DNA of 54,169 nt, from assembly GCA_028686735.1 (NCBI GenBank), contig JAQUBO010000002.1, positions 1 through 54,169 on the forward strand, in the 5' to 3' direction. This stretch comes from Bacteroidales bacterium. GTDB taxonomy: Bacteria; Bacteroidota; Bacteroidia; Bacteroidales; ML635J-15. Shown one piece after another: positions 1-13,484 of the stretch (position 1 is the first letter of the stretch; every line of letters begins with the position of its first letter). The position numbers and the translations under genes are program-made. The notes under the pieces were generated by a model that was not told where the DNA came from, searched no databases, and saw only the letters and a program-made list of their open reading frames with translations.

Positions 1-132
1 TAATCTAGATTCTCTGAATTGATTAATTTGTGCTGAAGAAATTGCAAAAAAACCTTCTTTTGAAATTTTATTCAATAAATCGTATTTCTTGAATAATTGT
101 TCCCAAGCTAAGTCATTTTTTGATTTATTCAT
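1..132 (-). CDS. Partial ORF (first 44 codons, runs off the left window edge); candidate restriction-endonuclease partner of the adjacent Dam-family methyltransferase
   Basis: Hand translation of the minus strand from ATG 132..130 gives MNKSKNDLAWEQLFKKYDLLNKISKEGFFAISSAQINQFRESRL and stays open to position 1. The ATG overlaps the 3' end of the methyltransferase ORF (125..132), suggesting translational coupling. Function is inferred from position only; no catalytic motif is visible in the fragment. Confidence 0.35.
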   Translation of the reverse strand, partial: MNKSKNDLAWEQLFKKYDLLNKISKEGFFAISSAQINQFRESRL

Positions 133-967
133 AGTTTCTTATTAAAAGCTCATCAACTTCTCCACGAGCTGCTCCGTTTGAATTAATCATGCGATTTGCT
201 TGTACAACACTAATATGATAATCTTTGTATTGATCCTTAATAAAAGTTGCTGATGAATTTGACAATAAAAATTTAATACCTTTTGAGTTTAATAAATCAC
301 AAGTTTCTCTAAGTCTCACTTGATCCCACATATCCCATCCTCCTTGAACATATCCAGTGAAATTTGAGTTTTCCGAAATTGGGTGGTAGGGAGGATCTAA
401 ATAAATAAACGATTTCTCGTCAGCCTGTTTTAATAGCTCTGAATAATCACCACTATGCATAACAATATTATTTAAATTTAAATATTTGTTAACTGCTTTT
501 AAAGTAGGTTCATTTACTATATTTGGATTTTTATACCTTCCAAATGGAGCATTAAACTCTCCAGCATTATTAACTCGATATAATCCATTAAAACAAGTTT
601 TATTTAAATAAATTATCCTTGAAGCCCGTTGTATTGATGTGAGCTTTTTAAATTTTTCTGTTCTGTCTATACTGCGAATTTGGTAAAAATATTCAGCCTC
701 GTTTTTATGTCTCTTTAAATCAATGATTAATTCGTCAAGATTATTTTTTATTACCTGATAGACATTTATTAATTCTTCGTTAGAGTCATTAATGACTGCG
801 TTTTTTGGTTGTAGGTGGAATAGAATTGCTCCGCCACCAATAAATGGTTCAAAATAATTATACTCTTTAATGTTTTTTGGTAAGACACCAACAATTGAAG
901 GGATAAGTTGTCTTTTACCCCCAACCCATTTTAAAAATGGAGTTGCTAATTTGTTGATTTTAACCAT
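125..967 (-). CDS. Dam-family (D12 class) site-specific DNA N6-adenine methyltransferase
   Basis: 280 aa. N-terminal FLKWVGGKRQL, AdoMet motif I EPFIGGGAILF and catalytic motif IV DPPY (IYLDPPYHP). The motif order is typical of alpha-class Dam-like enzymes. Confidence 0.9.
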   Translation of the reverse strand: MVKINKLATPFLKWVGGKRQLIPSIVGVLPKNIKEYNYFEPFIGGGAILFHLQPKNAVINDSNEELINVYQVIKNNLDELIIDLKRHKNEAEYFYQIRSIDRTEKFKKLTSIQRASRIIYLNKTCFNGLYRVNNAGEFNAPFGRYKNPNIVNEPTLKAVNKYLNLNNIVMHSGDYSELLKQADEKSFIYLDPPYHPISENSNFTGYVQGGWDMWDQVRLRETCDLLNSKGIKFLLSNSSATFIKDQYKDYHISVVQANRMINSNGAARGEVDELLIRNYE

Positions 968-1136: not shown

Positions 1137-1769
1137 CTAGAAATTTCGTCCAATAAAATATGTGCAAGTTAAATTAAGAACTGAGTTCTTTGAGGACGTA
1201 TATTCTGAATTATTAATATCAACAAAGCCTAAAGCATAATTAACTTTTAACTGCCATTGCATAAATTCAACCCCTCCACCGAAAACAAGACCTGTATCAA
1301 ATCTTTTTATCGTTCCTAATTCGCTTCCAAATTCAACTGGATGATTTTCTTCAAATTCATACTCATCTACTTCTGAGTGAAACTGACTTTTACCAACAAC
1401 AGCAACACTAGAGTATGGCCCAACATTACCAAAGACACTTATATTAGCAAGAGGAATTTTATATCCTATATAAATAGGGATGTCCATATATCCTAATTTT
1501 AATTTTGATTTACTAAAGGAGTTAACAATTTTAGTTCCTTTCTCGAAAAAACTTACAGACGCACCAACATAGACAAAACTCATAATTTCAAACTCTGCGG
1601 CAAGACCTAGTTGGTAACCCATTTTCAAACTATAATCAGGAGTGGAGAAATCATCTTTTTCAATAAAACTAGTCATACTAAAACCAACTTGTGGCCCCAA
1701 ATGAAATCCCTGTGCATTTAACATTGCAGTAACACTGACAAAAAAACATAATATTATTAACTTTTTCAT
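1137..1769 (-). CDS. Outer-membrane beta-barrel protein (porin-family type)
   Basis: 210 aa. Signal peptide MKKLIILCFFVSVTAMLNAQ, alternating hydrophobic strand pattern, Gly/aromatic-rich, C-terminal Phe (IGRNF). Confidence 0.7.
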   Translation of the reverse strand: MKKLIILCFFVSVTAMLNAQGFHLGPQVGFSMTSFIEKDDFSTPDYSLKMGYQLGLAAEFEIMSFVYVGASVSFFEKGTKIVNSFSKSKLKLGYMDIPIYIGYKIPLANISVFGNVGPYSSVAVVGKSQFHSEVDEYEFEENHPVEFGSELGTIKRFDTGLVFGGGVEFMQWQLKVNYALGFVDINNSEYTSSKNSVLNLTCTYFIGRNF

Positions 1770-1916: not shown

Positions 1917-4900
1917 ATGAAAAAAATCACACTTCTATCCTTATTTATTTTAGCATTTTTAAGTTATTTATTTGCAGAACATGTACCAGTATCAAAAGCA
2001 AAGCAAGTTGCAGAAAACTTCTACAATTATGCCTCTGATTATAGATCTAAAGGAAAAGTAATAGAAAATTTTGAAGTTTATAATAATGATATCTTAGTAT
2101 ATTATATTTTTAATTTCTCAACAGGTGGTTATGCAATAATTTCGGCTGACGATGAGGTTACACCAGTTTTAAGCTATGCTTTTAAAGGCAAATTTATTAT
2201 AGATGATGCAAAAATGCCAAAAAATTATGAGTATTTTTTAAATTCATATAAAATACAAATCGCACAAGTTATAAATCTTAATCTTAAAGGAGATGATGTC
2301 TTAAAACAAAAGTGGTCAAACTATTACAACAACGTATTTTCGGCTAGTAAAGAAACACAAGATGTGAGTCCGTTATTGGATATTGAGGAGATTAAGTGGG
2401 ATCAAGGTTGTTACTACAATGCTGATTGTCCTACTGATGCTGGTGGAGATTGTGGGCATGTATATACTGGATGTGTTGCAACCGCAATGGCACAAATTAT
2501 GCGTTTTCATAAATGGCCAGAACATGGAACAGGTTCATACTCATACAACGACACTAATTATGGAACACAATCCGCTAATTTTGGTACATCTTCATACAAC
2601 TGGGATGCAATGCCAGGGTCGGTAAACAGTTCAAACTCCGAAGTTGCAAAAATAATGTATCATTGCGGAGTTTCAGTTGATATGATGTATAGCACTACTG
2701 GTTCGGGGGCTTATGTTTATGGATATGTTAAAGAAGCATTAGTAAATTATTTTAATTATGACTCAGATGCGATGTACGCTTATCGTGAAAACTATAGCGA
2801 TACTAACTGGAAAAATGAAATAATTAGTGATCTTAGTAACGGTTGGCCTGTATTTTATTCAGGAACAGATGCTGAAGGAACTAGTGGACACGCATTTGTT
2901 TGTGATGGTTATCAGGCAGGAGCAGAAAGCTTTCACTTTAATTGGGGCTGGAGCGGATACTACAACAGTTATAATGTAATTGACGAATTAATACCTGGTG
3001 GAACTGGTGCAGGTGGCGGAAACGGAGATTTCTCATATAACCACCAAGCGGTATTTTCTGTGCATCCTACGTATGGATTAACGGCAGTTTTTTCGGCTGC
3101 ACCAACTACAATTTATGAAGGCAATTCGGTTTCATTTGTAGATGGCTCTTTTGGGGATCCAATTTCATGGTCGTATAATTTTGGAGATGGTGGTAATGCT
3201 ACTACGCCAAACCCAATACATTATTATAACACAAGTGGGATATATGATGTAAGCCTTACTGTCGGCGACGGATCTTCAACGAACACTGCAACAAAAACAA
3301 ATTATATTAAGGTTGTTCCAACTGAAGCTGGTTTCTCAATGGACTTTGAATCGTGCACCGATTATTCAAATAACTTTTTCCCATGGTCAGCTATTGACGC
3401 CGATCAAACCAATACTTTTGGAAGCTCAGATTGCGATTTCCCAGGTGAGTCAGGATTAATGTCATTTATGGCATTTAACCCAAGTGATGCAGGTTTTACA
3501 TTAGCATCAGCACACGGAGGACAAAGAGTTGGAATGGCAATTTGTCCTGGCGATAATAGTGCAAGCGATGACTGGTTGATATCTGAAAGACTTCAACTTG
3601 GTACAAACTCATCAATAAGTTTATGGGCACTAAGTCCAAAACCAGGATCTTGGGGTAATAATACATATCAGGTACTAGTTTCAACTACCAATAATAATCC
3701 ATCTTCTTTTACATTAGTTTCAGGTGCAAATCCTATCGAAGCTCCCGATACATGGACACAACACACTTACAACCTTTCTTCTTATGATGGGCAAAATGTA
3801 TATATTGCTATTCATCATGTTGCAAGTGGAAAGTTTATGTTATGGATAGATGATATAGAAATAATAACCACAAGTGGAGCAGTCGCTTTAAATGCTGATT
3901 TTTATGCAAATGCAACATCTCTTACACTTGGACAAACAGTAAATTTTACTGATAATTCAATTGGTAATCCTACAAATTGGAATTGGAATTTTGGGGATGG
4001 TGGAACTTCACAAATGCAAAACCCATCTTATACATACAATAGTGAAGGTATCTATACTGTTGAATTAACTATTTCTGATGGAACAAATAGCGATACTGAA
4101 ACAAAAACAGCTTATATTAATGTTTCCGAAGCATCTCTAGGAAACTGGATAGAACAAGCATCAGGCTTTTCGACTGCTTCGAGAGGTATAAATCACATTT
4201 CGATTGTAAACGAAAATATAGTTTGGGCAACGGCATACGATGGGTCGAGTAACGGAGCAAATATTCAAGAGTTTACAAAAACAACAAACGGCGGAGCAAC
4301 TTGGACAGCAGGAAATCTCAATCTTGGAAATACTGGTCTTGGAATATCTATGATTACAGCAATAGATGCTAATACTGCTTGGCTTGCAGCCTATCCAACT
4401 GGAACAGGGCAAACTGGTGGAATTTGGAAAACCACTAATGGTGGCTCAAATTGGACACGTCAAAATACGGCAACTTATAATAATGCCAGTTCTTTTACTA
4501 ATGTTGTTTATTTTTGGGATGAAAATAATGGGTTTTGTCAAGGCGATCCTATAAATGAAGAATTTGAACTTTACACAACTACAAACGGTGGCACAACATG
4601 GACAGCAGTTTCTGCAGCTAATATTCCAAATCCGCAAACAAGTGAATATGGATATGTGCGTAAATACGAGGTTATTGGAAATCATATTTGGTTTGGAACG
4701 AATAAAGGCAGACTATACCACTCATCTAACAAAGGCATTAGTTTTGAGGTCTTTAATACTCCAGTTAGTGATTTTGCAGGAGCATCTGCAAGTGCAAACT
4801 TTTCGTTTAAAGATGCAAATAATGGTTTAATAGTAAATCAGTCAGGAACTGTTTATAAAACTACTAACGGTGGAGCCTCGTGGACTCAATTAACTACTTC

Positions 4901-5414
4901 AGGAACTGTCTTTACAAATGGATTATGCTGGATCGAAGGAACTGATGTCGTATTCTCGACTGGTGCTGCCACAGATGCATCTGGATCATCATACAGTCAG
5001 GACGGTGGATTATCATGGACTACAATTGACGAAGTACAACATCTATATGTCGATTTTATAAACCCTAACACTGGTTGGTCGGGATGGTTCAATACAGATG
5101 CAACAACTAGCGGAATGTGGAAATGGAACGGCACAATCACTGAGATTAATGAGGGAATTGCAAATAGTGTTGAAACTCTAATGCTCTATCCTAATCCAGT
5201 TTCAGATAATCTGACAATTAAAACTATAAATGAATTATATAAAGCAGACTTAAAAATTGTTAATATATCGGGACAGGTCGTTTTTGAAACCAATATTAAT
5301 GCTTCTGAAGGAGAAATTATTAATATAAACACTACAAACTTACAAAAAGGACTCTATGTTTTAATAATTAACACTGATGACAATTGTTTAACAAAGAAGT
5401 TTATTAAAAACTAG
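1917..5414 (+). CDS. Secreted multidomain C10 (streptopain-family) cysteine protease: pro-region, C10 domain, PKD, choice-of-anchor-J/cleaved-adhesin-like domain, PKD, BNR/Asp-box beta-propeller, T9SS type A sorting domain
   Basis: 1165 aa with a signal peptide. The Cys region is TGCVATAMAQIMRFHKWP and the His region is SGHAFVCDGY. Two PKD signatures are present (FGDGGNATTPNPIHYYNTSGIYDVSLTV and FGDGGTSQMQNPSYTYNSEGIYTVELTI). DDWLISERL...YQVLVS resembles adhesin/anchor-J domains. Repeated TTNGG(A/S/T)(T/N/S)WT Asp-boxes occur. The C-terminus LMLYPNPVSDNLTIKT...GLYVLII is T9SS-CTD-like. Confidence 0.85.
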   Translation: MKKITLLSLFILAFLSYLFAEHVPVSKAKQVAENFYNYASDYRSKGKVIENFEVYNNDILVYYIFNFSTGGYAIISADDEVTPVLSYAFKGKFIIDDAKMPKNYEYFLNSYKIQIAQVINLNLKGDDVLKQKWSNYYNNVFSASKETQDVSPLLDIEEIKWDQGCYYNADCPTDAGGDCGHVYTGCVATAMAQIMRFHKWPEHGTGSYSYNDTNYGTQSANFGTSSYNWDAMPGSVNSSNSEVAKIMYHCGVSVDMMYSTTGSGAYVYGYVKEALVNYFNYDSDAMYAYRENYSDTNWKNEIISDLSNGWPVFYSGTDAEGTSGHAFVCDGYQAGAESFHFNWGWSGYYNSYNVIDELIPGGTGAGGGNGDFSYNHQAVFSVHPTYGLTAVFSAAPTTIYEGNSVSFVDGSFGDPISWSYNFGDGGNATTPNPIHYYNTSGIYDVSLTVGDGSSTNTATKTNYIKVVPTEAGFSMDFESCTDYSNNFFPWSAIDADQTNTFGSSDCDFPGESGLMSFMAFNPSDAGFTLASAHGGQRVGMAICPGDNSASDDWLISERLQLGTNSSISLWALSPKPGSWGNNTYQVLVSTTNNNPSSFTLVSGANPIEAPDTWTQHTYNLSSYDGQNVYIAIHHVASGKFMLWIDDIEIITTSGAVALNADFYANATSLTLGQTVNFTDNSIGNPTNWNWNFGDGGTSQMQNPSYTYNSEGIYTVELTISDGTNSDTETKTAYINVSEASLGNWIEQASGFSTASRGINHISIVNENIVWATAYDGSSNGANIQEFTKTTNGGATWTAGNLNLGNTGLGISMITAIDANTAWLAAYPTGTGQTGGIWKTTNGGSNWTRQNTATYNNASSFTNVVYFWDENNGFCQGDPINEEFELYTTTNGGTTWTAVSAANIPNPQTSEYGYVRKYEVIGNHIWFGTNKGRLYHSSNKGISFEVFNTPVSDFAGASASANFSFKDANNGLIVNQSGTVYKTTNGGASWTQLTTSGTVFTNGLCWIEGTDVVFSTGAATDASGSSYSQDGGLSWTTIDEVQHLYVDFINPNTGWSGWFNTDATTSGMWKWNGTITEINEGIANSVETLMLYPNPVSDNLTIKTINELYKADLKIVNISGQVVFETNINASEGEIININTTNLQKGLYVLIINTDDNCLTKKFIKN

Positions 5415-5545
5415 ACATAAAATTTTGTTTGTAAAATATAATCGTTATTGCACATCTTTAAAAGTCTGGTAAGCCTTTTTCTTATCAAATCTATACGTAA
5501 ATTGCATTTTTTTTGACTAATTAAGTATTTGTATTTAAATATATC

Positions 5546-5553
5546 TTAATTTT
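5546..5553 (+). promoter_or_regulatory. Candidate -7 promoter box (TAatTTTG) for the 5600..9405 two-gene unit
   Basis: TAATTTTG matches TAnnTTTG and lies 47 nt upstream of the ATG at 5600, in the 185-nt gap after the C10 gene. Confidence 0.3.
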
Positions 5554-5599
5554 GTGTTAATAAATATAGCAAAAAAATCTTGCATTAATATATATTATT

Positions 5600-6361
5600 A
5601 TGAAAAGAGTATTGATATTACTATTACTAGTTGTTACGATAGATGGTTTCTCCCAGCAAATAATCAGAGGCTATACAGCCAGTTTTTCTTATGGCTTTTT
5701 ATCGAAAGGAGACGATTTTACCATTCATTACAGTGGTAAAGATTACACTGCAACAGCACGAGAAACCAATGGAAGCTGTCTCGGTTTGGGATTTCCGTTT
5801 GATGTCGGATACAAGAGAAGTCGGTTTGTGTTTACTCCAGGTTTAGAGTTTGTAAGCTCAAATTATGAACTCGACCTCGATAAAGGAATGCTAAATACTT
5901 CAACAAATAGCGATAGTCTTAGATTAAGCTCTTTTATGATAACTCCAAAGCTGGAACTAATATATAAATTCCACTTTTATATTAAATCTGTTCATTTTGC
6001 AATAGGTGGCGGAATTGACTTAAGATTACCTTTATCCAATAACATAATACTTACAACTAAAGATAAAGCGGATTTAATTGAATATGACGCAACATCAAAT
6101 AGCACAACAGACTTTTTAACTTTTAAACCAAAAACTGTTTTCTCAAATCTTGCAAACCTTGGCTTTCATGTAAGTCCTAAAATTACTTTCGACATTTACA
6201 TGGCACGATTTCTTACAACAAGTATTTTTTATACTGCCTCGCCATTAACCACATACACTGATAATCCTGTATTGCGAGGATATGGCGGAATTGGGATAAG
6301 TTATTTAGTCCCCATGGGCAAAAAAGATGATTCGAGAGTTTTACAATATTATAAGCAATAA
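5600..6361 (+). CDS. Exported beta-rich hypothetical protein (possible small outer-membrane barrel); partner of the WD40-caspase
   Basis: 253 aa. Signal peptide MKRVLILLLLVVTIDGFSQ/Q. Amphipathic strand-like segments include FVFTPGLEFVSS, FMITPKLELIYKF, FAIGGGIDLRL, LGFHVSPKITFDIYM and GYGGIGISYLV. It ends in a charged tail, GKKDDSRVLQYYKQ. The stop lies 12 nt before the next ATG. Confidence 0.5.
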   Translation: MKRVLILLLLVVTIDGFSQQIIRGYTASFSYGFLSKGDDFTIHYSGKDYTATARETNGSCLGLGFPFDVGYKRSRFVFTPGLEFVSSNYELDLDKGMLNTSTNSDSLRLSSFMITPKLELIYKFHFYIKSVHFAIGGGIDLRLPLSNNIILTTKDKADLIEYDATSNSTTDFLTFKPKTVFSNLANLGFHVSPKITFDIYMARFLTTSIFYTASPLTTYTDNPVLRGYGGIGISYLVPMGKKDDSRVLQYYKQ

Positions 6362-6372
6362 AATACACAGAC

Positions 6373-9300
6373 ATGAAAAAGATCTTTTTAACGATAATAG
6401 TATTGAATATCAGCCTTGCTGCATTATTCTCACAAGAGATAGTGCCTGTTGTACAAGCTGGTCATTCGGGAGCAATTTTATGTGTTGAATGGGACCCAAC
6501 AAGCAGATATATTGCAAGTATAGATATAAATAATGAACTGGTAATTAACGACATTATTAGCGGTAAAATGTTCTATAGAATAAAAATACCTGGGGATAAA
6601 TTGGTTCTAGCTTTGAATTTTGATAGTGAAAACAGCTTACGACTTGCAACTAAATCGAAGACCTACAGATTTGATATGAAGACATTAAAACTTGAAGATG
6701 GTTCTGGTAAAATGCAACGAAAAATGCTAAGTAATGATTTTAAAATAAACGGTTCTGTATTAAGAAAAGGAAGTAAATCGTTGTTTAATCGAGATGCGTA
6801 TTCGAGTTTTACTTTTGCAGCACACTCGATTGATGGAAAACATATTGTTGCTGGTGACGAACGAGGATGTGTCTATTTTTGTAACAAAAATTTAAGTTTA
6901 AAGAAATTTGACCATACACATTTTTTAAACATTAACGACATTGACTTTTCTGCTGATGGTAAATTTGTTGCAATAGCTTCATCTGACAGATCTATTTCTG
7001 TGTGGAGCCTTCCTTATTTTAGGTTTGAAAAGCGTGTTATACCACGAAGTTTTAACGTCTCGGCAATAGTTTCGCACCCAAACGATAGTCTTGTTGCATT
7101 TGGCGATGAATTGGGCTTTGCATACCTTTTGAAATTCGAGGATGATAAAATTAGTTGTCAGGGGGTAAATGCACATAATGGGGTTATTAACGATATATGT
7201 TTTTCCCCAAATTCTAATATTACAGGCACTGCTGGAAGCGACAATATGGCGGCAATAGTGGATTTTGAAAATAAATGCGTTTTGCAAAAATTTAGATTAC
7301 AACCAAACACATCAAAGGTAAAGCAGACTTTTAATATTCAGAGTATTCAGGAAAAAGCTACAAACGAAGATAAAAGCGAAATCTGGTTTGACGAAAATGT
7401 TTATTCCGTCGCAATAAGTCCTGATGCTAAAACAATTGCATACTCTGGCGGTAAATGGGGTTTGACAAATCCAGTGTTAAAAGTGTCATCAATAAACAAT
7501 CTAAATATTAACAAACCTAAAGAAGAAAGGAAACCCAAAAAAACAAATCTTGGACTTATGTCAAAGAACAATGTACATATTTTTAAACAATTACTTTTTG
7601 CAAACGAAAAAGAATTTTATGGTTGGGGACAAGATAAAAATAAAGCTGTAAGATTTAGTACAACAATTACAGGATATACAGAAAAAAACCAAACTAGTAC
7701 TAGCAGCATTTTTGCAAAAAAACCTCCAGTTAACCTATTAGTGGTTGAAAATATTTATGACAAAACAACAAAATCTGATTATATTATTAAGTCAAATCCA
7801 GCAAATGGCGACATATATACTTGTAAGGGTTACGAAATAGAGAGAAAAACCAAAGACGGCAAAACTATAAAGTTTATAGGACACAGAGGATATATTAACG
7901 ACTTTGAATTAATTATAGGGAAAAACTACTTGATAAGTTCTGGTGAAGATGCCTCAATGATACTTTGGAACTTAGAAACAGGTAATAAATTATTAAGTAT
8001 TTATGTCGTTGATATGGGGAAACTAATTTTTATTACTCCTGATAACTACTATATGGCTACTGGTGATGCGCTTACAGGTCTTGGGTTTAATTTTGATGCT
8101 AAGGTTTTTCCTGCCGAGCAATTTGATATTAAATATAATCGACCAGATTACGTGTTAGAGTCGTTTGGTTATTTTAATCAAGATATGATAGACTTATATC
8201 ATAAAGCATATCGTAAACGTCTGTCAAAACTTGGGTTTTCCGAAGAAATGTTAAACGGAAACATAAACCTCCCCGAATTAAAAATCGAAAATCAAGATAA
8301 TATCCCAATTCAAACGACAAATAAAAATATTTCGGTCGAACTATCAATGATAGATGAAAATTATAATCTTGATAGAATTAATGTTTACGTAAACGATGTC
8401 CCATTGTTTGGTACTAAAGGGATGTCGCTAAAAAATGAGAGCTCTAAATCTATAAATAAAAAAATAGATATCCCTCTTTCTAAAGGTACAAACATAATTT
8501 ATATCTCTTGTTTAAACGAAAAAGGGATTGAATCGCTAAAAGAAGAACTTTCGGTAAATTACGAAGCCTCCGACAAATCAAAACCAGATTTATATCTAAT
8601 TTCCCTCGCAGTAACAGATTACGAACAATCACAGTATAATTTACGCTACACTATTAACGATGGTAAAGGTTTTGTGAAACTTTTTACAGATAATGATAAA
8701 AATTTTAATAAAGTTCATATCCATACTTTTTATAATGAAGATTGTACTCGAGAAAATGTGTTAGCTGTAAAAGACAAACTAATGAAATCGGGAGTTGATG
8801 ATTATGTGTATGTTCATATTGCTGGACACGGCTTACTTGATGATGAGCTCGATTTTTATTTTGCCACATCAAATATTGATTTCGTAAACCCGTCAAACAA
8901 TGGCTTAAAATATGACGAAATAGAAGGACTACTTGACGGAATTCCCGCTCGAAATAAATTACTACTAATGGATGCTTGTCACTCAGGCGAAGTTGATAAA
9001 GATGATGATTTTGCAGTAAACACTGTTAGTGATAGTGATGAAACACGCGGTGTTACAATGTTTAGCACTAAGTCCAGCACCACACCCAAAACAGGTTTAC
9101 GCAACTCGTTCGAACTAATGCGATTGTTATTTGCCGACCTTAAAAAAGGAACAGGAACAGTTGTAATTTCTGCAGCATCAGGAGGTGGTTATGCTTTAGA
9201 AAAAGAAGATATTGAAAACGGAATATTTACATATTGTCTAATCGAAGGGGTTTCTAAAAATAAAGCAGATATTAATAAAGATAATAATATTAGTGTCTCA

Positions 9301-9405
9301 GAACTACGGAGCTATATCTTTGAAGGAGTAAAGCGTTTAAGTGCTGGTAAGCAACAACCAACATCTCGAAGTGCTAATTTAATGAATGATTTTAATGTAA
9401 AGTAA
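6373..9405 (+). CDS. Exported WD40-repeat protein with C-terminal caspase-like (peptidase C14) domain
   Basis: 1010 aa. Signal peptide MKKIFLTIIVLNISLAALFSQ/E. Several WD40-like blades are visible (GHSGAILCVEWDP.., SADGKFVAIASSDRSISVWSL, AHNGVINDICFSP.., GHRGYINDFELI..SSGEDASMILWNLETG). The caspase dyad contexts are YVHIAGHG (His819, codon 8827..8829) and LLLMDACHSGE (Cys869, codon 8977..8979). Confidence 0.85.
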   Translation: MKKIFLTIIVLNISLAALFSQEIVPVVQAGHSGAILCVEWDPTSRYIASIDINNELVINDIISGKMFYRIKIPGDKLVLALNFDSENSLRLATKSKTYRFDMKTLKLEDGSGKMQRKMLSNDFKINGSVLRKGSKSLFNRDAYSSFTFAAHSIDGKHIVAGDERGCVYFCNKNLSLKKFDHTHFLNINDIDFSADGKFVAIASSDRSISVWSLPYFRFEKRVIPRSFNVSAIVSHPNDSLVAFGDELGFAYLLKFEDDKISCQGVNAHNGVINDICFSPNSNITGTAGSDNMAAIVDFENKCVLQKFRLQPNTSKVKQTFNIQSIQEKATNEDKSEIWFDENVYSVAISPDAKTIAYSGGKWGLTNPVLKVSSINNLNINKPKEERKPKKTNLGLMSKNNVHIFKQLLFANEKEFYGWGQDKNKAVRFSTTITGYTEKNQTSTSSIFAKKPPVNLLVVENIYDKTTKSDYIIKSNPANGDIYTCKGYEIERKTKDGKTIKFIGHRGYINDFELIIGKNYLISSGEDASMILWNLETGNKLLSIYVVDMGKLIFITPDNYYMATGDALTGLGFNFDAKVFPAEQFDIKYNRPDYVLESFGYFNQDMIDLYHKAYRKRLSKLGFSEEMLNGNINLPELKIENQDNIPIQTTNKNISVELSMIDENYNLDRINVYVNDVPLFGTKGMSLKNESSKSINKKIDIPLSKGTNIIYISCLNEKGIESLKEELSVNYEASDKSKPDLYLISLAVTDYEQSQYNLRYTINDGKGFVKLFTDNDKNFNKVHIHTFYNEDCTRENVLAVKDKLMKSGVDDYVYVHIAGHGLLDDELDFYFATSNIDFVNPSNNGLKYDEIEGLLDGIPARNKLLLMDACHSGEVDKDDDFAVNTVSDSDETRGVTMFSTKSSTTPKTGLRNSFELMRLLFADLKKGTGTVVISAASGGGYALEKEDIENGIFTYCLIEGVSKNKADINKDNNISVSELRSYIFEGVKRLSAGKQQPTSRSANLMNDFNVK

Positions 9406-9514
9406 AAAATAGTTTATCAGTTTATTGATGCCTTCGAGACTTTAGTTAGCAGTCTTACTCTTTAGGCAGCTTGGTGCTTTTGTTTGATACTTGGAGGGCT
9501 GGTACTGATTAATT

Positions 9515-10126
9515 TTAAATTTTTTCAAACCTATAACCAAGTTTTGAATAATATGTCAGTGTAAACTCAAGTACGCTAAGCATTTTAGGTGCGGAGAATA
9601 AATTGTCGTGAAAGACTAATATTGACCCATTTCGAGTGTTTTTGAGAATTATCTTTTTAATTCTTGATTTACTATATTTTTTATGATAATCATAAGTTAG
9701 CACATCCCATAATACAATTTTGTAATCTTTTTTAATACGCCAACATTGCCAAGGATATATCCGCCCGTACGGTGGTCTAAAAAAGAAAGTTTCAGACACT
9801 GGCGATTTTCGTAAAGCATCTATTAGCCACTTTCTATTTGAGACTTTAAAGGCATCCAAATGCGAAAATGAATGGTTACCTATCGTATGACCAGCTATTT
9901 TGATTTTTTCTAATAAGTCAGGATACATAATGGCATTTGAGCCTTTACAAAAAAAACTTGCTTTTGCGTTGTACTTATCCAAAAGCTTAAGAATGTTTTC
10001 TGTTACCTTAGGATTTGGACCATCATCAAAACTTAAATATAATGTTTTACCTGGGGTTATTATTCTAGTTATTCCCTTACAAAATATTTTAGGATACCTT
10101 ATTGCTATGTTTTCTAATAATCTCAA
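9515..10126 (-). CDS. Polysaccharide deacetylase (NodB homology domain) family protein
   Basis: 203 aa. YLSFDDGPNP (Asp-Asp metal/catalytic motif) and HTIGNHSFSH (His-His motif) are typical of CE4 deacetylases. Confidence 0.85.
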   Translation of the reverse strand: MRLLENIAIRYPKIFCKGITRIITPGKTLYLSFDDGPNPKVTENILKLLDKYNAKASFFCKGSNAIMYPDLLEKIKIAGHTIGNHSFSHLDAFKVSNRKWLIDALRKSPVSETFFFRPPYGRIYPWQCWRIKKDYKIVLWDVLTYDYHKKYSKSRIKKIILKNTRNGSILVFHDNLFSAPKMLSVLEFTLTYYSKLGYRFEKI

Positions 10127-10166: not shown

Positions 10167-13100
10167 TTAAATGTCAGTATATATTTTTGCAGCCTTTTCA
10201 TACACATCACTAATTTCTTCTAAAAACTCTCGATGTTTATATTGGTTTGCTAATACATACAGTTCTTGAATAGTTTGCATTGCTCGTTGTTTATATATAT
10301 CTAAAGCTGTTTGCTGTTGCTTGCTAAACGATGAGTAAAAAATCAATTCTTGTAGTGAGTTTTGCGAAATTACAGAAGCAAGCTCTCGTGCTTTAGCTTT
10401 TTTATTGACACGATAATATCCATGAACAATTCCTACATTATAATAATCGAATGGTATTAGTTCGTTTGGAATAAGTTTTACACACATATCAAGCACCTCT
10501 TCCGATTTTTTTATTTCTCCCTCGAAATACAAGCCACGTGCAAGACGTGTAAAATGGTTTCGTGAATTTATCAGACTTGTGCGTGTTGCCATATCACTAG
10601 GTCTGTTTTGGGTTTTCAGACTTCCCCACTTAAACTTATTACTTACATTATTATACATTATTTTAGCATTCACATTAACGAGTTTATCCTCGCTAATATC
10701 TGTTTCTAGAGGCATTAATCTATAAGCAAAACCTTCTAAATATAAATATTTATCTAACCCAAGATAATTTCGTGTATTCATTGTAGAACTAAAATAAATC
10801 GGTCTATCCCACAAATGGTTTCGTATAATCTCTAAAACCATTAAATCACTTTTTGTAAAGCTTTCACGTTCTGGAGACCATATCATTTCGTTGATAGGTG
10901 ATGTTTTTTGACTTGGACTTAGCTCAAAAACTTTATCAATAATATTATTATTTACAGGTAGCGAAAGGGTAGTAGCCGGGAAATAATCTATTGGATAAGG
11001 ATAAAGTTTTGTGCCAATTTTTGTTGATTCATCATCAGAAAAAACAAAGTTTAAGACTGGATGTAAAGGTAAAGCGTAACTAGTTTGTTTCTCAAGGAAG
11101 ACTTTAAACTTTCCAATTAAGTCAAGTGCCTGTGTTTGTGTTATACCAAAAGCTTCGCACTGTTCTGCATTATCAAGGCTTTGCACAACAGCATGCAAAT
11201 CTCTAAAATTTTGGTCTGCTCCATGCGGCTGAATATCGCTATAAAAATTTATAAAATTATTATATTTATCAGGATGCTCTTTATCAAAACCATTGGTTTG
11301 CCACATTTTTAATAAAAAATTAAATATGGCTTTATAATCAGCATTAATTTCATTTATATTCTGATAATAAATATCTTCGATAAAAGCATAAGGATTGTTT
11401 CTAACTGGCAACAACTCTCGCTGCCCCGACATATATCCTTTGGAAGATACGCTAATGTTTACTGGCTTTGTGCTGTGTTGTTTTCGTTGAATTTGCTCTA
11501 AATACCAACTTGTATTTAAAAAACTAAGATTTATAATTTTAACATCGGTTCTAATATTTTGTGTTTCTTGTAAATACCACAATGGAAAAGTCTCATTATC
11601 ACCAGCCGTAAAAAGTATTGCATTCTCAGCACACGAATTTAGCATATTATAAGCAAAATAATAAGCAAAATCATCGTGGCAACGATTATGGTCATCAAAA
11701 TTTGTACAGAAAAACTGAAACGGCACAGCCAAAAACGAAAGGCTTAAAACTATATATATTAGATGTTTTTTTGTAAAATGTTTTTTAAGATATTGATAAA
11801 TTGCATAAACACCAATTCCAATCCATATAGCAAAAACATAAAAAGAACCAACATAAGAATAATCTCTTTCGCGTGCCTGATATGGATGCTGGTTTAGATA
11901 AAAAGCAATAGCTATACCAGTAAAAATAAATAATAAAAGACTCACAAGAAAGTATTTTTTATCTTTCTGAAAAAGATATATCAGACCAATAATTCCAAAA
12001 ATAAAAGGTAGAAAATAATACGGATTTCGAGACATATCATTTTTTAAAAATTCTGGCAATTCGTTGGGTGTATTTAGTCTTAATTTATCAATAAAACCAA
12101 TTCCAGATATCCAGTTTCCATAAATAGGTCCTCCATGCGACTGAATATCGTTTTGAGCACCAATAAAATTTCTAAACAAGTATCTAAAATACATGTGATT
12201 AAATTGGTATCTGAACATAAACTTTATATTCGTTGCAAAAGAGGGTACGTCATCCTTTTTATAATTTGTCCACTGTCTATATGCAGCAATATGTTCAGGT
12301 AAATCGCTCCACATTCGTGGTAAAAAAACTTTGTCAGCCGAAATGTAATTTGCCTCGGGTTTGCGACTAATAATTTCGTATTTGCCGCTAACAGTATCGT
12401 AAACAGGTGCCCCCTCAATGTAAGGATTTATTTTATCTTTTTGCGAATTAAATTGTTGTCCATACCATAACGGACGGTCGCCATATTGTTCGCGGTTTAG
12501 ATATGACACAAAATTAAAAATGGTCTCAGGATTATTTTCATCAATTGGTGGGTTTGCAGCCGAACGAATTAAAACCGTTACGTATATCGAAAATCCCATA
12601 ATGAAAAACATCAGACCTGTAATAACAAAATTCAAATTTAGTTTTTTCTTTTTTCCAGAATACCATATCCCCGAAATAAAAACTGTACATGAAAATATTG
12701 CAAAAGCAAATAATCCCGAATTATATCCCAGATATAAGCGATTTACAAAAAACCACTCGAATTTCGATGCAATTACAGGTAAATAAGTTATTACTGCTTG
12801 TGCCAAAACAAGTAATAAAATCGCATAAAGGCTAAATTTTGCAAATTCTTTTTTGTTTTGAGTTCTCCTGTCGAAATAATAAATAAAAACAAAAGCAGGA
12901 ATAACCAAAATGTTTAGCAAATGTACGCCAGTGGATATTCCAAGGAGTAAAACAGTCAACAATGTCCATCTGTTTTTAGCAGATATTTTAGTAAAACTTG
13001 TTGTTTTTAACATTGTCCAAACAGTAAGCGAAGTAAAAAATATAGATAATGAATAAACTTCGGCTTCGGTTGCGATAAACCAAAAGCTTGACGAAAGAGC

Positions 13101-13484
13101 AAGAGCAATTGCTCCTATAAACGCTGCCCCGCTATGTAATAAATCGTTTTTTGCATCTGTTTCGTTATTTTTAAATCGTTTTAATAAAATAATAATGCTC
13201 TTATAAGTAAAAAACACTGCAAACGCACAAGAAAACACCGATAATAGGTTGACAAAAAATGCAATGTTTTCAGAATTAAACGCAAATATTGAAAATATTC
13301 TGGCAAGTATCATATAAAACGGAGCACCTGGCGGGTGTCCTATCTGCAATCCGTGAGCACAGGTAATAATTTCGCCACAGTCCCAAAAATTTACAGTTAA
13401 CGACATGCTAGTCAGATATACAATTAAACTAATCGCAAATGCTAACCAAGCTCCAATATCAATTATGTTTTTCTGTAATTTCAT
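10167..13484 (-). CDS. DUF2723 family polytopic membrane protein (glycosyltransferase-C-fold-like, TMEM260-related)
   Basis: 1105 aa. The N-terminal hallmark is NFWDCGEIITCAHGLQIGHPPGAPFYMILARIF. About a dozen hydrophobic segments are followed by a large soluble C-terminal region. Confidence 0.8.
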   Translation of the reverse strand: MKLQKNIIDIGAWLAFAISLIVYLTSMSLTVNFWDCGEIITCAHGLQIGHPPGAPFYMILARIFSIFAFNSENIAFFVNLLSVFSCAFAVFFTYKSIIILLKRFKNNETDAKNDLLHSGAAFIGAIALALSSSFWFIATEAEVYSLSIFFTSLTVWTMLKTTSFTKISAKNRWTLLTVLLLGISTGVHLLNILVIPAFVFIYYFDRRTQNKKEFAKFSLYAILLLVLAQAVITYLPVIASKFEWFFVNRLYLGYNSGLFAFAIFSCTVFISGIWYSGKKKKLNLNFVITGLMFFIMGFSIYVTVLIRSAANPPIDENNPETIFNFVSYLNREQYGDRPLWYGQQFNSQKDKINPYIEGAPVYDTVSGKYEIISRKPEANYISADKVFLPRMWSDLPEHIAAYRQWTNYKKDDVPSFATNIKFMFRYQFNHMYFRYLFRNFIGAQNDIQSHGGPIYGNWISGIGFIDKLRLNTPNELPEFLKNDMSRNPYYFLPFIFGIIGLIYLFQKDKKYFLVSLLLFIFTGIAIAFYLNQHPYQARERDYSYVGSFYVFAIWIGIGVYAIYQYLKKHFTKKHLIYIVLSLSFLAVPFQFFCTNFDDHNRCHDDFAYYFAYNMLNSCAENAILFTAGDNETFPLWYLQETQNIRTDVKIINLSFLNTSWYLEQIQRKQHSTKPVNISVSSKGYMSGQRELLPVRNNPYAFIEDIYYQNINEINADYKAIFNFLLKMWQTNGFDKEHPDKYNNFINFYSDIQPHGADQNFRDLHAVVQSLDNAEQCEAFGITQTQALDLIGKFKVFLEKQTSYALPLHPVLNFVFSDDESTKIGTKLYPYPIDYFPATTLSLPVNNNIIDKVFELSPSQKTSPINEMIWSPERESFTKSDLMVLEIIRNHLWDRPIYFSSTMNTRNYLGLDKYLYLEGFAYRLMPLETDISEDKLVNVNAKIMYNNVSNKFKWGSLKTQNRPSDMATRTSLINSRNHFTRLARGLYFEGEIKKSEEVLDMCVKLIPNELIPFDYYNVGIVHGYYRVNKKAKARELASVISQNSLQELIFYSSFSKQQQTALDIYKQRAMQTIQELYVLANQYKHREFLEEISDVYEKAAKIYTDI

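Follow-up and report, generated by a model that had tools for sequence, protein, structure and literature searches.

Bacterial caspase-family proteases have been studied almost wholly as cytoplasmic effectors of death or defense. In gasdermin-protease operons and in caspase/WD40/TPR conflict systems, a small gene is followed by one for a caspase-family protease with repeat domains. WD40 repeats occur on 10.9% of prokaryotic metacaspases, and putative signal peptides were noted on some of these enzymes in 2012 (PMC3501461). Here we consider a gene pair in a 54,169-nucleotide (nt) stretch of DNA from a Bacteroidales bacterium (GTDB lineage ML635J-15; assembly GCA_028686735.1, contig JAQUBO010000002.1, positions 1 to 54,169 of the forward strand), all of which is called the window below. 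The first gene encodes the partner, a putatively exported protein that is predicted to be a small outer-membrane beta-barrel, and the second encodes a putatively exported protease in which tandem WD40 propellers precede a metacaspase-like C14 domain (Table 1). We propose, with about an even chance of being right, that the two products form a dedicated two-component protease module of the cell envelope, in which the barrel uses its C-terminal tail to anchor or regulate a periplasmic protease specific for Arg/Lys. The interest of the pair lies in a caspase-type enzyme that is predicted to work in the cell envelope and not in the cytoplasm.

Both open reading frames (ORFs) named in a preliminary description of this DNA (5600..6361, 253 amino acids [aa]; 6373..9405, 1010 aa) were recovered in the ORF listing, where they lie on the same strand with an 11-nt gap between them (6362..6372). 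In ten ortholog pairs, the ratio of nonsynonymous to synonymous substitution rates (dN/dS) was 0.05-0.34 for the partner and 0.03-0.19 for the protease, indicating that both are real coding genes under purifying selection. All of the evidence for the barrel-protease pair is computational.

Conservation of the pairing and its promoter

The two genes were adjacent in every informative locus, in keeping with their treatment as a unit in the preliminary description. A scan of GTDB with one genome per species found the partner at 27 loci, all in uncultured Bacteroidales, Marinilabiliales or Bacteroidia from sediments, digesters and rumen; by tblastn and ORF extraction, the protease gene comes next on the same strand, 3' of the partner, in 26 of these and in all metagenome loci, mostly with gaps of -1 to 12 nt (maximum 137 nt). 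Four divergent partner homologs on long contigs likewise have the protease gene directly downstream, with differing outer flanks. The only species locus without a protease gene, in a rumen metagenome-assembled genome (MAG; locus L037), has a contig end soon after the partner. Its partner loses similarity to that of a close relative (L030) after about residue 214 (~6900..7658): the two depart ~100 nt into the compared tail segment, and the contig ends 650 nt further on. This locus is likely a chimeric contig end or a rearrangement, and we regard it as uninformative and not as a counter-example.

The pairing also held in the reciprocal direction. For P0075, which is the most divergent among full-length proteases on long contigs (54% identity), a barrel gene lies 5 nt upstream; its 259-aa product is a member of the partner family (hhalign probability 99.95%), with ILQQYKK at the C-terminus. 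In a sister clade, barrels that match the partner profile weakly, and over the N-terminal half only, are followed in all three informative loci (L038, L040 and L041) by a collinear protein with signal peptide, WD40 repeats and C14 domain. The L038 protease is 32% identical to the window protease over its full length (E 1e-161), and the sister-clade protease scores 57.7 bits to PF00656; a homolog search from the sister barrel returned only the query's own cluster. Since more distant WD40-caspases of 22-39% identity (P0084 from Cyclobacteriaceae, P0080 and P0082) have no barrel upstream, the pairing appears to be limited to the window clade and this sister clade.

Within these limits, the two proteins have changed at different rates. 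The C14 domain is 68-92% identical across the clade whose partners end in the motif LQxYK; in the rumen clade, identity to the window proteins is ~25% for the partner, 48-50% for the propellers, 54-57% for the linker and sandwich and 68-70% for the C14 domain.

Loci L009 (4099..11703) and L010 (2079..13407) hold distant relatives of the protease that are barrel-less and are 33-42% identical to it over the linker, sandwich and C14 module. Several C14/CHAT paralogs stand together in an array at each of these loci, and the L010 array adjoins an RHS/DUF6531 gene; this context looks more like that of a conflict system than the context in the window does.

Upstream of the partner gene, the sequence TAnnTTTG, which we take to be the Bacteroidetes -7 element, occurs once in 5300..6400. 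The preliminary description was right that such a box exists but had placed it at 5546..5553, one base to the left of its real position at 5547..5554. Among 29 distinct orthologous upstream regions, 22 carry a -7 box 15-80 nt ahead of the partner ATG and another four carry one at 81-82 nt; the background of 1.09 boxes per kb per strand gives an expectation of ~0.07 per interval of the 15-80 nt size. Because the 11-nt gap separating the two genes contains no -7 box, the simplest reading is that partner and protease would be co-transcribed from one primary-sigma-type promoter. The suggestion that the pair is its own transcription unit thus fits what was found, namely tightly coupled genes behind a conserved promoter box. 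Scans of 5300..9700 for sigma-70 promoters and intrinsic terminators were not enriched over shuffles, and no terminator hairpin was found downstream of the protease gene.

Architecture of the protease

The protease is represented by ~48 clusters of ~1010-aa orthologs, 53-87% identical and all from uncultured Bacteroidales. Its full-length AlphaFold2 model (predicted local distance difference test [pLDDT] 78.1, predicted template-modeling score [pTM] 0.68) begins with a helix at residues 2-19, corresponding to the signal peptide. The N-terminal half matches WD40 repeats (Pfam E 2.9e-17) along with many beta-propeller families, and the best Foldseek matches of the modeled propellers are double propellers (PWP2/Utp21, Aip1, 2ymu and Apaf-1); the N-terminal part was also matched by the periplasmic two-propeller-plus-Ig sensor domain of BT4673. 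The preliminary description had assigned about 700 aa to WD40-like blades. The blades are there, but they end near residue 579 in the model, and a helical linker and a beta-sandwich fill the remainder; this linker and sandwich segment is 54-86% identical across orthologs.

The C-terminal region is modeled as an alpha/beta domain (residues 740-1010), and Peptidase_C14 (PF00656) matches residues 747-1007 with 50.1 bits against a gathering cutoff of 21.4, so the caspase fold proposed earlier stands. The dyad codons were also correctly read: His819 (8827..8829) lies in HIAGHGLLD and Cys869 (8977..8979) in LMDACHSGE. H819, C869, D763 and D867 are invariant in the 36 full-length orthologs aligned, both blocks are unvarying throughout among them, and H819 (in HIAGHG) and C869 (in DACHSG) are kept even in distant paralogs. 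A single-sequence search of the C-terminal half against the PDB gave nothing meaningful, and a profile of the C14 domain reached Arabidopsis MC4 (AtMC4, E 1.1e-5), TbMCA2, Yca1 and the bacterial GSU0716. In the profile alignment, D763 stands opposite Asp95 and D867 opposite Asp211 of TbMCA2; these are residues of the proposed S1 pocket of that enzyme according to PMC4357240, which also gives an overview of clan CD. Orthocaspases are described as cutting after positively charged residues (PMC6426788). Because the window protease keeps the His/Cys dyad as well as both acidic S1-pocket residues of metacaspases, it is of the metacaspase/orthocaspase kind and most likely an active endopeptidase, with predicted cleavage after Arg or Lys.

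Straight after Cys869, in the position of the p20/p10 linker, the model has a disordered loop (residues 870-915). Within this otherwise variable loop, Arg892-Gly893 (R892 at 9046..9048) is invariant, which makes the bond between them a candidate autoprocessing site.

One ortholog is interrupted. In L016, from the MAG Marinilabiliales BM703, a single G-to-T change at position 9861 turns GGA into TGA at the invariant Gly363 and truncates the protease at 362 aa. The near-identical contigs L005 and L006 are intact at this site, and the stop comes from an assembly error or marks a strain-level pseudogene.

The predicted barrel partner, its location and its tail

The partner had no match in Pfam, NCBIfam, PADLOC or PHROGs, and its profile retrieved nothing among PDB sequences. 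When 28 aligned members were compared with Pfam at E <= 5, no family matched, apart from one member to OMP_b-brl (E 0.08), and no signature of PorP/SprF, PorT or PorV/FadL-like proteins was seen. The AlphaFold2 model is confident and all-beta (pLDDT 82.9, pTM 0.77), and all 18 of its PDB Foldseek matches at E <= 1e-3 are outer-membrane beta-barrels, including a Legionella Dot/Icm-associated porin, the OmpA N-domain, OmpW, Ail/OmpX, OmpT/Pla and autotransporter barrels (E 3.6e-6 to 6e-4, with probability 1.0 for the best structural matches). Hydrophobic residues alternate along the strands with a score of 2.52, against 1.53 +/- 0.35 in shuffles, of which 0.45% reach the observed value; the longest hydrophobic run is at most 3 residues. 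The last strand carries GxxYx[V/I/M] with an invariant Y235, resembling a beta-signal. The 253-aa partner is therefore predicted to be a small outer-membrane beta-barrel, a class call that combines the signal peptide, an all-beta fold matching known outer-membrane proteins and lipid-facing alternation, with membrane insertion itself predicted.

A profile search of 1.84 billion representative proteins gave 22 partner matches at E <= 1e-3, ~14 of them clear full-length members. So small a family argues that the partner is no generic barrel, a possibility that the preliminary description had raised, and in every informative locus its members stand beside the protease. It had also likened the pair to gasdermin-protease operons and cytoplasmic conflict systems. 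This likeness is not upheld, given the barrel fold, the weak PADLOC result and the housekeeping-like neighborhoods described below: no gasdermin is among the top 50 PDB matches listed for the partner model, and a gasdermin or pore-former was rejected on the basis of a fold search whose significant matches were all outer-membrane barrels.

Both products are predicted to carry signal peptides of the Sec/signal peptidase I (SPI) type, in agreement with the first reading of the sequence. A positively charged n-region, a hydrophobic core, A or S at -1 and Q at +1 mark every one of the 31 unique partners whose start could be called with confidence (L041 was left out, its start being mis-called). The same features are found in 31 of 31 unique proteases, with an A/S-to-Q junction in 30 of them and T-to-Q in L038. 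The 10-residue Kyte-Doolittle mean of the core is at least 2.5 in partners and proteases, and in each the residues before the junction vary freely and the following ones are conserved: QQ(I/V)(I/V)RGY in the partner, and Q followed by [DEN](I/V)(I/V)P(V/I)(V/I)Q(A/S/T)GH in the protease. Gln at +1 is the "Q-rule" of Bacteroidetes for signal peptidase I substrates (PMC5837995, PMC10653852). Both proteins lack a lipobox, and neither has a type A (Por_Secre_tail/TIGR04183) or type B (CHU_C-like) domain of the type IX secretion system (T9SS) by scans that detected such a domain in the adjacent C10 peptidase, which served as positive control. Lacking both a lipid anchor and a T9SS sorting domain, the protease should stay in the periplasm. 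Both ends of an even-stranded barrel usually face the periplasm, and by analogy the two ends of the partner, including the C-terminal tail, would do so as well.

Alternatively, the barrel could be an export or display device that holds the protease on the cell surface, where it would act on nutrients or other cells, as PorV and PorQ hold PorU and PorZ or as SprF-type barrels serve neighboring T9SS cargo. Small barrels of Bacteroidota are often encoded beside the surface proteins that they serve, as in T9SS PorP/SprF-type pairs; PorU is a clan CD peptidase and PorZ a double propeller, and T9SS cargo genes lie near the pair in the window and in related loci. The sequences of the pair itself speak otherwise: the protease has neither type of T9SS domain, its C14 domain extending to residue 1007 of 1010, and no lipoprotein signal, the partner lacks the PorP/SprF, PorT and PorV signatures, and a barrel of ~235 residues cannot pass a folded 110-kDa double-propeller protein. 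We consider surface display improbable. With no C-terminal sorting domain and no barrel-family signature, T9SS cargo and a PorP/SprF-type pair were both rejected as identities for the two genes.

The charged C-terminal tail pointed out in the preliminary description is present; it spans residues 240-253 (GKKDDSRVLQYYKQ), beyond the last strand. No other 6-aa window of the partner family is as strongly conserved as LQYYKQ (weighted conservation 0.85 versus a mean of 0.55), with L248, Q249, Y251 and K252 invariant in 31 unique partners, and members down to 25% identity end in LQQYKK, LQLYKQK or LQIYKKQ. The tail is disordered in the monomer model (pLDDT ~48-50). A disordered, invariant and periplasm-facing peptide on an otherwise fast-evolving protein would most plausibly be an interaction handle, with the protease, the one constant neighbor, as its target. 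WD40 propellers are well established as binders of short terminal peptides, for example the COPI propellers with C-terminal dilysine motifs.

The same tail could instead be cut. The barrel would then be a substrate or effector, and the WD40 sensor would trigger cleavage of the tail (after K241, R246 or K252) or of an invariant GYKRSR turn, opening or closing a pore or releasing a peptide; the logic of protease-activated pores would then have a version in the envelope, the gasdermin analogy of the earlier description. The basic residues concerned are kept (K241 and R246 at 90% or more, K252 invariant, R73 and R75 invariant) and suit the predicted Arg/Lys specificity of the protease, the disordered tail is therefore accessible, and the pairing is strict. 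Yet the partner has the fold of an ordinary outer-membrane barrel with no gasdermin-like match, the L027/L028 clade has not kept the basic residue just before LQxYK (...S[SR]DFLQYYK), and the contexts are housekeeping-like, with low dN/dS in both genes and nothing specific in PADLOC. On balance, we find the substrate role unlikely, although it is the alternative that we take most seriously.

Still less probable, to the point of being a long shot, is that the C14 domain is a transpeptidase that removes a C-terminal signal from the partner and links the barrel covalently to another part of the envelope, for example peptidoglycan, a lipid or a glycan. The strict conservation of the C-terminal motif on a protein whose remainder is free to vary would suit such a signal, and clan CD offers precedents in PorU and the glycosylphosphatidylinositol transamidase; however, the sister clade has a different C-terminus, to our knowledge no member of the C14 family acts as a transpeptidase, and the proposal is a deduction throughout.

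Table 1. Coordinates of the gene pair, its parts and two neighboring genes in the window
Feature	Position	Strand	Description
-7 promoter box	5547..5554	+	Bacteroidetes-type, TAATTTTG, fits TAnnTTTG; 45 nt before partner ATG
Partner gene	5600..6361	+	253-aa putatively exported protein of undescribed family; predicted small outer-membrane beta-barrel
Partner signal peptide	5600..5653	+	Residues 1-18, MKRVLILLLLVVTIDGFS; predicted SPI cleavage before Gln19
Partner C-terminal tail	6317..6358	+	Residues 240-253 after last strand, GKKDDSRVLQYYKQ; LQYYKQ at 6341..6358
Protease gene	6373..9405	+	1010-aa putatively exported protein; tandem WD40 propellers and metacaspase-like C14 domain
Protease signal peptide	6373..6432	+	Residues 1-20, MKKIFLTIIVLNISLAALFS; predicted cleavage before Gln21
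Tandem WD40 beta-propellers	6448..8109	+	Residues ~26-579; ~48 strands, ~12 blades (DSSP of model)
Helical linker and beta-sandwich	8113..8562	+	Linker residues 581-619 (three helices), sandwich ~635-730; secondary structure and pLDDT of model
C14 catalytic domain	8590..9402	+	Metacaspase/orthocaspase-like; D763 8659..8661, His819 8827..8829, D867 8971..8973, Cys869 8977..8979
Disordered loop	8980..9117	+	Residues 870-915, straight after Cys869, p20/p10 linker position; pLDDT <50
OMP_b-brl_2 outer-membrane barrel gene	1137..1769	-	210 aa; PF13568 E 7.4e-16; weak TDE1717 family match
C10 cysteine peptidase gene	1917..5414	+	Streptopain-type, 1165 aa; separates OMP_b-brl_2 gene from pair

Genomic context, proposed role and known systems

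The pair occurs once per genome, in surroundings that are syntenic across species 60-65% identical. Its flanks are genes for glycogen debranching, a glycosyltransferase, GH57 and an epimerase in L005 and L007, tRNA synthetases and a Mur ligase in L042, and pantothenate genes in L046; no defense-island or mobile-element neighbors were seen among the neighborhoods inspected. This matters for a further alternative, modeled on proposals for cytoplasmic caspase/WD40/TPR conflict systems, in which the WD40 domain senses an invader in the envelope and sets off destructive proteolysis that ends in abortive infection or suicide. In its favor, the nearest NCBIfam model of the protease is that of conflict-system caspases (NF047832, "caspase, EACC1-associated type"; 66.7 bits), PADLOC gives a weak caspase match, a DNA methyltransferase gene lies near the pair in the window, and the distant L009 and L010 relatives occur in C14/CHAT arrays with RHS genes adjacent. 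The NCBIfam score is nevertheless far under the cutoff of 140, the pair is single-copy and lies in syntenic housekeeping surroundings, the catalytic domain is very strongly conserved with low dN/dS, and there are no links to PHROGs. For a module with vertical inheritance, strong conservation and housekeeping contexts, a role in suicide or defense is less likely, and we attach only a low probability to it. A known defense system was rejected as an identity for the pair: PADLOC returned a weak generic caspase match and a spurious HEAT-ARM match for the pair, with none for the partner, and PHROGs gave nothing useful.

The nearest genes on the left include a second barrel. An OMP_b-brl_2 ortholog lies immediately upstream of the pair, in divergent orientation, in L001-L007, L016, L017, L019-L022 and L026-L028, about half of the species loci. 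L023-L025 and L029-L036 have no such gene, nor does the rumen clade; it is a frequent, non-obligatory neighbor. The partner was rejected as a paralog of this barrel (hhalign probability 2.8%). The C10 peptidase gene that separates the two in the window looks like an insertion, because the OMP_b-brl_2 gene directly adjoins the pair in many related genomes. Its product combines an Inhibitor_I69 propeptide, two PKD domains, a choice-of-anchor J domain, an F510_1955-like region and a T9SS type A sorting domain. At the left end of the window is a gene for a D12-class N6-adenine DNA methyltransferase (125..967, minus strand), and downstream of the pair one for a TMEM260-like protein O-mannosyltransferase of 1105 aa (10167..13484, minus strand); neither is conserved in related loci. 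Between the latter and the pair, convergent to the protease gene, lies a polysaccharide deacetylase gene (203 aa, 9515..10126, minus strand), and a Polysacc_deac_1 gene of similar size is found ~5 kb downstream of the sister-clade pair (L042/L043, 18640..19257).

In one Bacteroidia species, the sister-clade pair closes a string of seven genes on the same strand (L038, 530..9752, and L042-L045). The pair is preceded there by genes for an SPFH/Band-7 protein with GYF_2, a hypothetical protein, a TPR protein, a second hypothetical protein and a TPR-adenylate/guanylate cyclase. The cyclase stop overlaps the longest-ORF start of the barrel in L038, and the annotated starts in L042-L045 leave a gap of ~14 nt. 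The string hints at a link to nucleotide signaling in the sister clade, and was seen in this single species.

Taken as a tethered envelope protease, the pair could work as follows. The ...LQxYK-COOH peptide of the barrel would dock on the double WD40 platform or on the adjacent beta-sandwich, and docking would anchor and position the protease beneath the outer membrane and might also gate it. The double propeller and sandwich may therefore be viewed as a platform for docking and recognition. Activation would probably involve cleavage in the loop after Cys869, at Arg892-Gly893, and the job of the enzyme would most likely be limited Arg/Lys proteolysis of envelope proteins, whether in processing, turnover or quality control.

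Several observations count against this proposal. All carriers of the pair are uncultured. The template-modeling scores (TM-scores) of the partner against known barrels are modest (at most 0.49 when normalized to the query, and 0.57 to OmpA). The exact tail motif is not universal: sister-clade barrels lack LQxYK and end in an ...IYIHK-like sequence. The protease is placed in the periplasm by the absence of known surface-export signals. Finally, eukaryotic metacaspases typically have an acid-rich Ca2+-binding loop, none is evident downstream of His819, and regulation may differ.

Alternatively, the pair could form a caspase-type switch lying wholly in the periplasm. The double propeller would read an envelope signal, which could be a ligand, a misassembled outer-membrane protein or a component of an invader, and would thereupon release the metacaspase-like domain to cleave or transfer its own barrel partner at the tail. 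We judge this rather unlikely; if it were true, outer-membrane permeability or attachment would be altered, and the pair would be an envelope counterpart of protease-plus-pore logic so far known from the cytoplasm alone.

A search of the literature for bacterial metacaspases that are exported or periplasmic and have a barrel partner found no relevant paper, nor did we find an exported bacterial caspase-family protease tied to a defined partner or site of action. The pair offers a concrete case of a putatively exported caspase-type enzyme with a defined partner. It also offers directly testable handles in the LQxYK peptide, the predicted Arg/Lys specificity and the candidate activation site R892. 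If the model of a barrel-tethered protease is correct, the pair represents a new class of regulated proteolysis in the Bacteroidota envelope and provides a function for an unannotated barrel family. If the protease acts on the barrel, protease-controlled switching of membrane proteins would extend to the periplasm.

The early remark that the pair could not be matched to a characterized system holds for every system with which we compared it. Metacaspases and orthocaspases (MEROPS C14 subfamily B; Microcystis MaOC1, AtMC4, TbMCA2 and Yca1) are like the window protease in their caspase-hemoglobinase fold, recognized via PF00656, and in their His-Gly and D-x-C-H-S-G motifs, two acidic S1 positions and disordered linker after the catalytic Cys. 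Sequence similarity to the solved metacaspases is marginal, the best profile E being the 1.1e-5 given above. Unlike known members, the window protease runs from a signal peptide through a double propeller, linker and sandwich to a C-terminal C14 domain, and it has predicted export, an obligate outer-membrane barrel partner and no evident acid-rich Ca2+ loop. Gasdermin-protease and caspase/WD40/TPR conflict systems share the order of a small gene and a caspase-family protease with repeat domains, but in the window both products appear to be exported, the small protein has a predicted barrel fold and there is no defense island.

Among envelope systems, the T9SS attachment complex of Porphyromonas (PorU-PorV and PorZ-PorQ) is similar in logic only: it too belongs to Bacteroidota, and a clan CD peptidase or a double propeller is held by a dedicated barrel. 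PorU, however, is of the C25/gingipain family, PorU and PorZ are surface proteins with T9SS C-terminal domains, and their barrels are 14-stranded and FadL-like, a family of which the partner shows no signature; in the window protease, propellers and peptidase are joined in one chain. BT4673 (PDB 3ott/3va6), a hybrid two-component sensor of Bacteroides, likewise has tandem propellers followed by an Ig-like sandwich in the periplasm (Foldseek E ~3e-17 over ~810 columns). Global TM-scores to the protease are 0.17-0.24, so the two are alike in architecture alone, and BT4673 differs as a glycan sensor that is joined to a kinase and a regulator through a membrane helix. The partner, for its part, has no sequence relationship to the OmpA N-domain, OmpW, OmpX/Ail, OmpT/Pla or the Dot/Icm porins, and unlike small barrels that end at the beta-signal it continues into a conserved 14-residue C-terminal extension ending in LQxYK. 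Set beside these systems, three things appear to be undescribed: the domain order of the protease, its obligate pairing with a dedicated outer-membrane barrel from a new family, and the tail motif that this family conserves.

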